Positions 17,126 to 31,896 of a stretch of DNA of 39,473 bases are shown here, piece by piece. A program made the position numbers and the translations under genes. Within the stretch, counting starts at the first letter, position 1. Every line of letters begins with the position of its first letter. The notes below the pieces were generated by a model that saw nothing but the letters and a program-made list of their open reading frames with translations, ran no database searches and was not told the DNA's origin. The DNA is from Nanobdellota archaeon (GTDB taxonomy: Archaea; Nanobdellota; Nanobdellia; Woesearchaeales; GW2011-AR4), in NCBI GenBank assembly GCA_038046385.1, contig JBBSWH010000003.1, positions 1-39,473 on the forward strand. Reading direction: 5' to 3'.

Positions 17126-17257
17126 ATGAGAACGACAAAAAACTTTTCCGTGGCATTGGATGTCGGAAATCAAAGATTTCCGATCACCTCGCGGAACTTT
17201 GTTCCGCAACGAATGCCACTTCATGTCGTCGTAAAGGGGCGAAACCGTTTATGGTGA
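17126..17257 (+). repeat. Branched palindromic cassette between atpC and atpF, spanned by a 43-aa mini-ORF
   Basis: Nested stems ACGACA/TGTCGT, GTGGCATT/AATGCCAC, TCGGAAATC-aaa-GATTTCCGA and GCGGAAC-ttt-GTTCCGC. ATG lies 1 nt after the atpC stop and the TGA overlaps the start of atpF. Confidence 0.7.
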
Positions 17258-17550
17258 ACATAGCAGCAGCAGGGTCAAGCGAATTTGTCGTCGGGTTCAG
17301 GCTAGCCGGAGTGAGGTATATTTTTGAGATGAATGACGATTATTTCAAAAAACTGAAGGAGTTAAGAAGCGACAAGGAGCTGGGAGTAGTTGTCGTCGAG
17401 GAAAAAGTAATGGAATCCTTGGAGCAGCATCAGAGGATTGAGATAGAAAGCTCTGTGGAGCCGGTATTCATAACACTGTCAACAAAAGTCGAACAGGATA
17501 GCCTGAAGAGACTGATAAAAAAATCAATAGGCGTTGACCTATGGAAATAG
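17251..17550 (+). CDS. atpF: A-type ATP synthase subunit F
   Basis: GFRLAGV and IKKSIGVDLW. Confidence 0.95.
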   Translation: MVNIAAAGSSEFVVGFRLAGVRYIFEMNDDYFKKLKELRSDKELGVVVVEEKVMESLEQHQRIEIESSVEPVFITLSTKVEQDSLKRLIKKSIGVDLWK

Positions 17551-17581
17551 ATTATAATAAAAATTTTAATGGGTGAAAAAT

Positions 17582-19309
17582 ATGGACAAAGGAGTATTAT
17601 ACAGAATTGCAGGGCCGGTTGTTGTCGCTAAAGGCATCAAGCCGAGAATGTACGATGTTTGCAGAGTTGGAAATGAAAAATTGATGGGAGAAGTCATCCA
17701 GATAGACGGAGACAAAGTCATAATTCAGGTTTATGAAGACACTTCCGGAATGAAACCAGGTGAGCCTGTGTTAAACACAGGAGAGCCGCTGAAAGTCGAG
17801 CTTGGGCCTGGACTTTTGAACAGCATCTACGACGGAATCCAGAGGCCATTGCCTGTTCTGATAAAACAGATGGGGGACTTCATTAAACGAGGGGTTGATG
17901 CACCGGGACTCGATTATTCAAGAATATGGGATTTTAAGGCAACTGCAAAAACCGGAGATAATGTAGCTGGGGGAGCAATACTTGGAGAAGTAGAGGAAAA
18001 TCCAGGAATTATCCATAGAATAATGGTACCTCCAAATCAAAACGGAAAAATAAAAGATTTGAAATCTGGCAAATATACTGTTAACGATGTTATAGGAACA
18101 CTTGACAACGGATTTGAATTAAAATTAAAGCACAACTGGCCTGTAAGGGTTCCAAGGCCTGTATCAAGAAAACTTAAGCCAGATGTACCATTAATAACCG
18201 GACAGAGAATTTTTGACGCATTGTTTCCGCTGGCAAAAGGCGGAGTTGCTGCAATACCAGGGCCGTTTGGAGCTGGAAAAACAGTTTCACAGCAGCAGCT
18301 TGCAAAATGGTCAGACGCAGACATGATTGTCTACGTTGGATGCGGCGAGCGTGGAAACGAAATGACAGAAGTTTTGACAGAGTTTCCTGCATTGATTGAT
18401 CCAAGATCAGGAAGGCCTTTGATGAACAGGACTGTGCTGATAGCAAACACATCAAACATGCCGGTCGCTGCACGAGAAGCTTCGATTTACACAGGCATTA
18501 CAATTGCAGAGTACTACAGGGACATGGGATACTCTGTTGCTCTGATGGCAGATTCAACATCAAGATGGGCAGAGGCAATGAGAGAAATTTCTTCAAGGCT
18601 GGAGGAGATGCCAGGAGAAGAAGGTTACCCTGCTTATTTGTCAACAAGACTGGCGCAGTTTTATGAAAGAGCCGGACGTGTAACGCCGCTTGGAACAAAG
18701 AAAGAAGGATCTGTTTCAGTAATCGGCGCAGTTTCGCCGCCTGGGGGAGATTTTTCAGAGCCGGTAACACAGAGCACTTTGAGAGTTACAAAATGCTTCT
18801 GGGCACTTGACGCAAAATTAGCACAAAGAAGGCACTTTCCGTCGATAAATTGGCTAACATCTTATTCACTTTACCTCGGAACACTTGAGCCATGGTTTGC
18901 AAAGAATGTCGAATCAGACTGGGGATTGCTTGTCGGACAGATGATGAACATCTTGCAGGAAGAAGAAAAACTGCTTGAAATAGTTCAGTTGGTCGGTTCT
19001 GACGCATTGCCAGATCGACAACAGGTTTCGCTGATTACTGCAAGGCTCATCAGGGAAGTTCTTCTTCAGCAGAACGCTTTCCACGAGATTGACACGTTTT
19101 GCGAACTGAAAAAGACATACATGATAATGAAGGCAATAATCAATTTTTCAAAGCTTGCGAACAACGCACTTGACAATGGATTGAGGGTGCAGCAGATTGC
19201 CGCAACAAAATCCAAAGACAGACTGTCTGAAGTCAAGTTCGTGAAAGACTATGAAAAACTATTGTTTGAGATAGCAGGACAGATGGAGAAGGAGATGAGG
19301 TCACAATGA
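17582..19309 (+). CDS. atpA: A-type ATP synthase subunit A (no intein)
   Basis: [17 protein letters not shown] and [19 protein letters not shown] favours ATG 17582 over GTG 17573. Confidence 0.98.
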
Positions 19310-30568: not shown

Positions 30569-30569
30569 T

Positions 30570-31814
30570 TTACTTTCTTTTTTTCTTCCAGAACCTGTAG
30601 CCGAAGAAGGCAACTACAGCAATAACTAAGATGAAAAACCAATAAGAGTTTCCTTTGCCGGCAACAAGCCCTAATTTTTTTGCCTCAGATGAAGTGTATA
30701 ATGGCAATGAAAGGCTTATGTCTTTTTTGTAATTCTTGTTGTTTGCATCCTTGTATTCTATTGTCAAAGGAATTGCAACGCTTTTATCAGATGTCTTTTC
30801 CATGTAAAGCTTGAAATCAGCTGTTTCATAGTCATCAGAGTCTATGTTGCCTATGTAGATTTCAGAAGGAGACAATGTTTTGTATTTGTCGCTGCTTAAT
30901 AATTTTAAGTTGACAAACTTCATATCCGGCAATCCGCGGTTGACTATTTTTACTGTGATGTCTCCGGCAGTCCCAGCTGTGTATATTGTTGTGCTGTCAA
31001 CACTGACTGAAACCTCCGGCTCACCGCCAACAACCATGGTAACGACGTTGGATTTGGAATAGTTTTTGTTTAACAAGTCAGAATACCTTAGCATCAAAGG
31101 AACTTTGTAAGATTTTGATGATGCATCAGGATCAACCAACAAATCAAAATCAACAGAAGTTGTTGCCTGTCCATCAATAAATGAGATGACTTTTTCATTT
31201 ACAGAGCCAAGAGGCGAAAAAGGAGTTGCAAGATTGTTGCTTGTTCCCAATTCAAGACTAACTCTTACATCTTTCAATGCAGATGTCGCATAATTTTTTA
31301 ATGTTATCGAAAGCTTTGCCTTTGCTCCAGGAGCTACAACAGCAGGGTCGGATGAGAATTTGTCCACTGCAAGTATTGCGTCATGTGACTGCACATTTAC
31401 GCTAAGGTCGTTCACTACAGAAAGCAATTGACTATCTCCATATTTGAACCCTGCCTTCAATTCGTAATTGCCGTCAGAAGCGCTTTGGTCTACAAGAAGC
31501 TTGTACTTCAAAACAACACTTTGGTCTGCATTGTTAGTATTTCCGAGAACCCCTATTTTTCTTTCAGCAACCTCTCCAGGCACAAGTGAGAATGGATACT
31601 CTGGCACGATGCTAAAGACTACATTCTGGGCAATATCCCCTTCATTGTCTATCTTAAAATTGACTTCAAACTGCTTGCCCGGCTCAACCGGATCAGGATC
31701 CTGATTGTTTATGCTTACCTGTATGCTTGGAGATTTTACATTATACTGCGCGTACGCAACACCTGAAATCAATACCATCAAAACCATAACTGCAATAAAA
31801 ATTTTGTTTTTCAT
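30570..31814 (-). CDS. COG1361-like (S-layer/CARDB Ig-fold) membrane-anchored protein of the ABC operon
   Basis: Signal peptide, QDPDPVEPG...F.I.N.G, repeated beta-sandwich motifs (YIGNIDSDD), C-terminal TM and basic tail; GAGGTGA SD. Confidence 0.85.
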   Translation of the reverse strand: MKNKIFIAVMVLMVLISGVAYAQYNVKSPSIQVSINNQDPDPVEPGKQFEVNFKIDNEGDIAQNVVFSIVPEYPFSLVPGEVAERKIGVLGNTNNADQSVVLKYKLLVDQSASDGNYELKAGFKYGDSQLLSVVNDLSVNVQSHDAILAVDKFSSDPAVVAPGAKAKLSITLKNYATSALKDVRVSLELGTSNNLATPFSPLGSVNEKVISFIDGQATTSVDFDLLVDPDASSKSYKVPLMLRYSDLLNKNYSKSNVVTMVVGGEPEVSVSVDSTTIYTAGTAGDITVKIVNRGLPDMKFVNLKLLSSDKYKTLSPSEIYIGNIDSDDYETADFKLYMEKTSDKSVAIPLTIEYKDANNKNYKKDISLSLPLYTSSEAKKLGLVAGKGNSYWFFILVIAVVAFFGYRFWKKKRK

Positions 31815-31896
31815 TTTTAATTCACCTCAACGGTTTCGTCCGTTGACACCGACATCAAGTGCAATCTGCGATTGCACGGAACCGTTTTTCATTTTT
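31806..31896 (-). repeat. Hairpin cassette flanked by a 13-bp direct repeat, spanned by a 21-aa mini-ORF (31827-31892); homologous to 17126-17257
   Basis: AAAAATGAAAAAC twice; hairpins GTGCAATC-gca-GATTGCAC and TCAACGG-acgaaa-CCGTTGA; peptide MKNGSVQSQIALDVGVNGRNR. Confidence 0.72.

Follow-up and report, generated by a model that had tools for sequence, protein, structure and literature searches.

A hairpin repeat at two operon junctions

We analyzed a 39,473-nucleotide (nt) stretch of archaeal DNA, called the window below, which is contig C3 of G000, a metagenome-assembled genome (MAG) of Woesearchaeota type with a size of 1.28 Mb and a G+C content of 38%. The window encodes an A/V-type ATPase operon, and its tRNAs carry long introns. 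Two of its operon junctions, atpC|atpF and that between the ATPase and permease genes of an ABC transporter, hold copies of a repeat that we interpret as a small, noncoding, modular hairpin element, previously undescribed and mobile at the DNA level in one Woesearchaeales (DPANN) lineage. Insertion of this element, with a short open reading frame (ORF) relaying translation across it, is an account that we favor as a whole at slightly better than even confidence. Coordinates without a prefix refer to the window, those prefixed C1, C2, C5, C6, and C10 refer to other G000 contigs, and L-numbers denote loci of relatives unless marked G000. The two junctions are organized as follows.

16042 to 17124, plus strand: atpC, subunit C of the A/V-type ATPase, the upstream cistron (stop codon 17122-17124)
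17126 to 17257, plus strand: bridging short ORF of copy 1, 43 codons; its ATG lies 1 nt after the atpC stop and its TGA overlaps the atpF start (ATGgTGA)
17146 to 17250, plus strand: copy 1, a short form with a nested insert, made of TTCCGTG, a GTG...CAC stem (17150-17157 / 17212-17219), a linker, and a terminal hairpin; match to the R1 covariance model at 17217-17252 (E=3.6e-6)
17160 to 17211, plus strand: nested two-hairpin module of another repeat family, in the stem loop of copy 1
17233 to 17250, plus strand: terminal hairpin H3 of copy 1 (AAAGGG / GCGAAA / CCGTTT), its last base directly 5' of the atpF ATG
17251 to 17550, plus strand: atpF, subunit F, the downstream cistron (ATG 17251)
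30570 to 31814, minus strand: ABC permease gene, 414 amino acids, the downstream cistron (ATG 31814)
31806 to 31818, minus strand: right copy of a 13-nt direct repeat, containing the true permease start codon (31814-31812)
31822 to 31828, minus strand: Shine-Dalgarno (SD) sequence of the permease, GAGGTGA, directly 3' of the element
31827 to 31892, minus strand: bridging short ORF of copy 2, 21 codons; its ATG lies 9 nt after the ATPase stop and its TGA consists of the last T of the element and the GA of the SD
31828 to 31845, minus strand: terminal hairpin H3 of copy 2 (CAACGG / ACGAAA / CCGTTG)
31828 to 31881, minus strand: copy 2, a 52-54-nt short form; match to the R1 covariance model at 31826-31861 (E=4.1e-8)
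31884 to 31896, minus strand: left copy of the 13-nt direct repeat, AAAAATGAAAAAC, a duplicated permease start region
31902 to 32597, minus strand: ABC transporter ATPase gene, the upstream cistron (stop codon 31903-31901)

A first-pass annotation of this DNA had taken the two cassettes for members of one family placed at operon junctions. Our alignment bears this out, as copies 1 and 2 are identical at 28 of the 36 columns of their 3' module (our own count) and both match the covariance model of that module. The stems differ in sequence and still pair, as had also been noticed: GGCATT/AATGCC in copy 1 versus CAATC/GATTG in copy 2, with a paired GTG...CAC stem in both. The exact 12-mer GRCGAAACCGTT occurs five times in the 1.28 Mb, each time within a family member. 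What all forms have in common is the 3' end only, namely, UCGGUG followed by a 6-bp hairpin (N-AACGG / loop RCGRAA / CCGUU-N') whose outermost pair, N:N', is formed with the first base of whatever adjoins the element. Pattern and BLAST searches of G000 recovered short forms, long forms with extra hairpins, and full-length forms, and elements of the family measure ~52-105 nt. Two short forms of 52 nt lie in the ribosomal-protein operon, directly before rpl2 and before rps19, while the full-length form (~85-105 nt) consists of hairpin 1, UUUUUGAUGA, an A/U-rich palindromic hairpin 2, and the common 3' module. An outer helix, AACGGUU/AACCGUU, is present in copy 2 only. The insert nested in the stem loop of copy 1 measures 51-52 nt, and the same module recurs at C2:42490, at C5:68100, and in a relative (L009). 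In minimum free energy folds, the start codons of atpF and rpl2 fall within an extended hairpin.

Structure at the RNA level is supported by covariation for one hairpin only. H3 is 96.3% paired over 59 sequences, with changes on both sides in 3 of its 6 pairs, a result reached by none of 500 shuffles. Because the pattern used to gather most of the 59 alignment rows held the inner columns constant, the weight of the covariation is carried by the free N:N' pair and by divergent G000 copies (CAACTG/CAGTTG and CAACTC/GGGTTG). The N' base lay outside the search pattern, and N:N' is a Watson-Crick pair in 58/58 archaeal pattern matches (C:G 39, U:A 11, A:U 8) versus 7/31 bacterial ones. An alternative helix, GUCGK/SGGRC, was rejected, being 70.8% paired and no better than shuffles on pair-type measures.

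To this extent, the RNA motif suggested by the first-pass annotation holds, as one covarying hairpin, while a dedicated regulatory or ribozyme function for it finds no support. Rfam 15, run on the whole window at the gathering threshold, matched only two tRNAs. With copy 1, copy 2, and a full-length copy as queries and E values up to 5-10, the best Rfam score was 18.9 bits versus cutoffs of 35-111, and no ribozyme family was matched. The strings CGAAAC and UGAUGA do recall hammerhead or C/D-box cores in our own reading. However, threading of the hammerhead by hand (CUGANGA, GAAA, and UH cores) left an extra U, a replaced A9, and an unpaired stem I/III in 3/4 short copies, and threading likewise failed for ribozyme, K-turn, and C/D-box readings of CGAAAC, UGAUGA, and UUGAUG, UGAUGA varying with its stem partner. 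Given that all forms share just one hairpin, that the element works in either orientation, and that no Rfam family appears even at E up to 10, we find a self-cleaving ribozyme barely credible, a verdict that extends to a conserved leader peptide or small protein (see below).

A different repeat lies elsewhere in the atp operon.

20715 to 20785, plus strand: copy of a second two-hairpin repeat family, in the 250-nt atpB-atpD spacer, containing TTCCGTG-stem-CAC at 20725-20741

The feature at 20725 that had been annotated as a partial copy belongs to this second family, which lacks the 3' module and has further copies at C5:122323, C6:36632, and C10:45474. The spacer itself (20695-20944, 250 nt) is pieced together from three or more further short repeat modules that are found again on many contigs (examples are C10:45472-45504, 100% over 33 nt, and C6:147695-147742), and several unrelated insertions have been taken up by the atp operon.

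Insertion into tight junctions with duplication of the target

The covariance-model search that the first-pass annotation had suggested yielded 12 copies in G000, so more than two, and no Rfam family. In the 43 other genomes of the genus, which we call congeners, the R1 model found 0-13 copies per genome, with matches in 38/43 and none in 5/43. Outside the genus, matches came from 3 of the 150 genomes sampled from the class, and these three belong to the same order. Related records bear the labels Woesearchaeota, Nanoarchaeota, or Nanoarchaeia. A pattern scan of 185,579 species genomes returned 89 matches, of which 58 were in archaea-labeled records, almost all with DPANN names, and 31 in assorted bacteria; about 100 pattern matches would be expected by chance over 596 Gb (our own estimate), and the bacterial ones are chance matches. 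Full-text literature searches, whose reach did not extend to supplementary lists of intron families, found no description of the element.

We then compared orthologous junctions, fetched from 29 congeners per site. The element was found in 0/29 congeners at atpC|atpF, in 0/29 at the ABC ATPase|permease junction, and in 0/29 each at rpl23|rpl2 and rpl2|rps19. The usual congener junction is tight (TAAaATG, TAATG, or GGTGATTAAAATG); at the atp site, atpF follows atpC by 0-3 nt or after an AT-rich spacer. To judge from these alignments, the G000 copies at the four junctions are lineage-specific DNA insertions into formerly tight or overlapping junctions, each of which duplicated a target stretch with the start codon. 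The duplicated flank is ATG at copy 1, the 13-nt repeat at copy 2, TAATG at the rpl2 copy, and ATGAAAGCA at C1:91688, where the ancestral state is an ATGA overlap; it amounts to ~33 nt of a tRNA 3' end at C1:86364. At C1:41649, a perfect 20-nt direct repeat (TCAGGCCCATTCATTATCAT) brackets a diverged copy with the hairpin CAACTC / ACAAAA / GGGTTG (region C1:41600-41730). The 13-nt repeat at copy 2 is possibly the remnant of a longer, decayed repeat that included the SD. Around C1:86200-86420 (G000 locus L171), the short-form copy stands just 3' of the tRNA gene and is followed by a slightly diverged second copy of the last ~33 nt of the tRNA and a trailer.

A scan of the 76 copies with enough flank detected repeats of at least 9 nt in 7/76 copies versus 1/76 controls; the 13-nt repeat at copy 2 escaped it, starting as it does 10 nt away from the element. 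The flank repeat lengths that we observed are 3, 5, 9, 13, 17, 20, 22, 23, and ~33 nt. Together, the copy numbers among congeners, the congener junctions devoid of the element, the target duplications, and the absence of an Rfam match agree with the undescribed mobile cis-element at gene junctions that the first-pass annotation had proposed. Its SD-like GGTGA end stood for copy 2, where GAGGTGA is the SD of the permease, 7 nt before the ATG, and congeners carry GGTGAT at the same place. It fell for copy 1, where GGTGA is made up of ATG+GTG+A of atpF itself and congeners read ATGGTA/ATGGTG.

Bridging ORFs and the borders occupied by the element

An ATG-ORF spans the element in 4/5 start-abutting G000 copies. 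These ORFs begin 1-12 nt from the upstream stop or overlap it and end between -15 and +4 of the true start. The peptides read MRTTKNFSV...VVVKGRNRLW (copy 1, 43 codons) and MKNGSVQSQIALDVGVNGRNR (copy 2, 21 codons, its TGA inside CCGTTGAGGTGA); the ORF has 24 codons with TAATG at both ends in the rpl2 copy and 35 codons, from ATGA to TGATG, at C1:91688. At least 4/5 bridging ORFs in one phase has a probability of about 0.045 under random phase (our own arithmetic). The ATG is the duplicated host start, and the stop consists of three bases: the final U of the element, N', and the A that follows.

Could these ORFs encode a conserved leader peptide or small protein? The same frame is open in three short-form copies and one full-length copy (...GVNGRNR* / ...VVKGRNR*), and the alignment of peptides noted in the first-pass annotation (the KNFSV/KNGSV-type frame) is real, since all four bridging ORFs use the same frame through the same DNA. 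However, their starts are duplicated host start codons, which removes the leader-peptide meaning given to that alignment, and where copies differ, the changes in stems are compensatory. The full-length form has lost the internal ATG, replaced by ATA, GTC, TTC, or ATC together with the paired stem base, via changes that keep the stem paired (GATGAAAC / GATAAAAC / GGTCAAAC). A leader peptide is further contradicted by the absence of the bridging ORF from 1/5 start-abutting G000 copies and from 8/8 rps10/rps15 copies. On this comparison of copies, the bridging frame is not conserved as a gene, and the similar peptides are a by-product of target duplication. At position 31845 of the window, one contig from run X3 reads T for G, which changes the paired N from C to A on the element strand; the N:N' pair is broken, yet the change is synonymous (GTC to GTA) in the 21-codon ORF.

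We propose instead that the short ORF probably lets ribosomes pass the element. The old upstream start codon, beside the stop of the preceding gene, would open a short ORF through the element, read in the one frame whose UGA/UAA stop, formed by the element's last U, N', and A, coincides with or adjoins the true start or SD. Having finished the upstream gene, ribosomes would start again on the short ORF, unfold the hairpins, and stop at the true start, where they would reinitiate. Without such a relay, the hairpins would be expected to bury the downstream start. Coupled operon expression, once given by the ancestral overlap, could thereby survive the insertion.

We examined the surroundings of 80 distinct copies found with a relaxed pattern. 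In 22/80, an ORF of at least 60 codons starts no more than 15 nt from the hairpin end; among these, the nine "TTG at -3" start calls are in part automatic, since the element ends in TTG. Another 20/80 are reverse oriented behind a gene, whose stop codon lies -3 to +2 from N' in 19/20. A tRNA detected by ARAGORN is touched by 8/80, seven in reverse (at the first intron bases or 2 nt behind the 3' end) and one forward, ending exactly at tRNA position 1. Promoter-like boxes follow 4/80, and 26/80 were left unclassified by the script, ~12 of which abut tRNA pieces by eye. A promoter function with the transcription start site at the element end was rejected for the window copies, which have no A/T-rich box 24-30 nt upstream, unlike G000 boxes of the AACCTTTAAAATA type. 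A box of the AACCTTTAAAATA / AACTTTTATAAAC type occurs ~25-30 nt upstream of each of the two tRNA genes of the window (26316-26440 and 39260-39388), which have long introns (~55 and 69 nt by the Rfam tRNA model); ARAGORN in default mode detects neither gene.

The hairpin end thus always faces functional sequence, which raises the alternative that the element is a recruited cis-acting RNA module, its terminal hairpin serving as a signal at the borders of functional RNAs (processing, end protection, terminator, or translation aid) in a position that is selected rather than tolerated. The constant pairing of N', which is the first base of the tRNA, SD, or start region, fits this alternative, as do the T5-6 runs in the A/T-rich palindromic middle hairpin and the occurrence of the same full-length element before rps10 in at least five MAGs and before rps15 in at least five MAGs. 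The TTG start of rps15 (L190, L191, L192, and L045) comprises the element's last two T's and the first base of the gene, so that the element is part of the start of an essential gene. Against a recruited module, the same junctions lack the element in the 29 congeners, five congeners do without any copy, and matches outside the genus are few. The element also occurs in transcripts in both orientations, so two loop sequences differ; the short form of the window has no middle hairpin; and a substitute for tRNA 5' processing is not needed, because G000 has RNase P RNA (121 bits). We leave a minor but real chance to this alternative.

In other Woesearchaeota, the reverse complement of the module forms the first 20-25 nt of tRNA introns, both in tRNA-Gly(CCC) at the canonical 37/38 site (L088, L050, and L030) and in D-loop introns (L034, L056, and L081); forward copies end exactly at tRNA 5' ends (L047). 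Folds of the module-bearing introns pair the far end of the intron with the module, giving relaxed sites. At L043:2850-3000 and L047:5700-5900, tRNA-associated forms of the element stand in tandem before tRNA-Leu, and at L043 they separate repeated copies of a tRNA 3' half, possibly pieces of tRNA that were split or duplicated.

These introns would make sense of the element as an intron-like unit that the tRNA-splicing endonuclease EndA cuts from polycistronic mRNA at a relaxed bulge-helix-bulge (BHB), with ligation of the ends. G000 encodes EndA (97.5 bits; region C6:72431-72691), and copy 2 has a matching 5' CGGUUC / 3' GAAACCG pair. However, a strict hBHBh' scan (3-nt bulge, 4-bp helix, 3-nt bulge) gave 0 candidates at the rpl2 and rps19 copies, one at copy 2, outside the element, and five at copy 1 versus 2.2 expected from shuffles, none at the element borders; at none of the copies (copy 1, copy 2, and those at rpl2, rps19, and C1:91688) does a candidate span both borders. 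The scan recovers the window tRNA at 26316-26440 and the tRNA-Leu of L047 but fails on the element-bearing introns of L088 and L034; relaxed sites thus escape it. Moreover, excision would not restore the ancestral coupled junction. Splicing of the element from mRNA is therefore unlikely, and we allow an intron-like unit only a slim chance.

Several results weigh against insertion and relay. No flank repeat of at least 9 nt was found in 69/76 copies, most copies having none of even 8 nt, and the duplications range from 3 to ~33 nt, unlike those of a classical transposase; the duplication length is therefore variable and often short. An empty allele was not seen, as both window sites are occupied by the element in the contigs of all 4 DNA runs (4 studies), which bridge or enter the two copies with no joint that skips the element. 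Insertion of a purely selfish kind leaves unexplained the nucleotide-exact contact of the hairpin end with SDs, start codons, tRNA ends, and convergent stops (19/20 at -3 to +2). Bridging is not a general property of the family, because the rps19 copy has no bridging ORF, being instead open in frame with rps19, and 0/8 rps10/rps15 copies analyzed in relatives have an ORF ending at the start. Among the families searched, no mobilizing gene was found in G000, the ends of its Y1 element being unrelated and TnpB and RVT_1 absent; across the 43 genomes, Y1_Tnp and element counts give a Spearman coefficient of 0.18 (p=0.25), and 16/38 element-bearing genomes have no Y1 match. The three tyrosine recombinases of G000 were uninformative. 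Among the 12 G000 copies, we saw no pair of modules with an ORF between them, a systematic search for such an autonomous parent not having been made.

The Y1 results also bear on a palindromic element (REP, PATE, or MITE, a miniature inverted-repeat transposable element) derived from REP/RAYT or IS200/IS605 and moved by a Y1 transposase. A short hairpin repeat in intergenic DNA, a Y1_Tnp ORF in G000, and the 9-bp terminal inverted repeat of some full-length copies would suit such an origin. The single IS200-like Y1 transposase ORF of G000 (C10:41826-42305, HUH and Y motifs, within C10:41784-42305, G000 locus L169) is flanked on either side by GC-rich hairpins of its own that bear no relation to the repeat. 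These ends are unlike the repeat, and the flanks of the ORF are devoid of the module. In addition, a genome with 13 copies has no Y1 match and a genome with 9 Y1 matches has no copy, G000 has no TnpB, and the flank duplications are of variable length whereas IS200/IS605 makes none. The REP tag is described, in the part of the review available to us, as a GTAG or CGTC tetranucleotide at one end of a 20-40-nt palindrome (PMC3733652). Our element has no such tag, its ends reading GTGCC... or TTCCGTG (5') and ...CCGTT-N' (3'). We consider movement by a Y1 transposase very improbable.

Significance and comparison with known systems

DPANN genomes are very compact, with overlapping, translationally coupled genes. 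An element that can occupy start codons in the operons for ATP synthase, ribosomal proteins, and transporters and yet leave them working would show how compact genomes tolerate mobile DNA: through duplication of the target, both neighbors would keep their signals, and a relay ORF would restore coupling. The module at the start of tRNA introns in related archaea would link intergenic repeats to intron gain. For the annotation of MAGs, such elements are a source of spurious small ORFs, extended N termini, and split tRNA calls; the covariance model from this work can flag the elements.

Bulge-helix-bulge tRNA introns of Thermoproteales appear to transpose between tRNA genes, as Fujishima et al. 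reportedly found in 2010. They serve as a positive control in the portion available to us of a 2026 census (preprint 10.64898/2026.10.13.758758), which calls the arrival route of archaeal BHB introns open. Our element resembles archaeal BHB tRNA introns in that the module is common to introns at different positions of different tRNAs and the host has EndA; it differs in that the module also lies between protein genes, before starts, and behind stops and that no strict BHB brackets the window copies. There is a small chance, in our estimate, that new tRNA introns derive from a class of archaeal mobile elements of which the module is the hallmark. A unit landing in a tRNA loop would then survive by forming a spliceable site with its own far end, and one landing at an mRNA border would owe its survival to relay ORFs and a duplicated target, or else to cleavage by EndA at the CCGUU end. 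If true, this would be a concrete route for the arrival of archaeal BHB introns, and the variable, long flank duplications would point to unusual chemistry, for example, staggered or target-primed insertion.

For archaeal genes that overlap or lie a very short distance apart, coupling by termination-reinitiation is established, according to the available portions of two papers (PMC6728339, PMC10666635). As far as these portions go, the likeness lies in the stop/start overlaps at both ends of the element's short ORFs (TAATG, TGATG, and ATGgTGA) and in ancestral junctions that were also overlaps; the difference is that the element would relay coupling via an inserted mini-ORF of 21-43 codons. 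Our literature searches found no paper describing a coupling relay through an inserted, element-encoded mini-ORF.

With MITEs, the element has in common a small size, the lack of an ORF, flanking direct repeats, and a patchy distribution. A 9-bp terminal inverted repeat, CYGTTGRCA / TGTCAACGG, was recognized by eye in L021, L079, L053, and C1:91688 and is absent from the short form of the window. Unlike those of MITEs, its flank repeats have no fixed length (3 to ~33 nt), and a parent insertion sequence with the same ends was not found.

Among bacterial small intergenic repeats, REP/BIME, ERIC, the Correia elements of Neisseria, and the Rickettsia palindromic elements are those that we take to be nearest. 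Two reviews deal with such repeats (PMC3184786, PMC3733652). Like these repeats, our element is short, noncoding, hairpin forming, modular, and variable in copy number, and it shares with them nesting of repeats in one another, cotranscription in operons, and tolerance at intercistronic sites. It differs from them in being archaeal (DPANN), in having no link to RAYT, and in abutting start codons, stop codons, and tRNA ends to the nucleotide. In further contrast to the bacterial repeats, its target duplications are variable, up to ~33 nt, and its module also starts tRNA introns.

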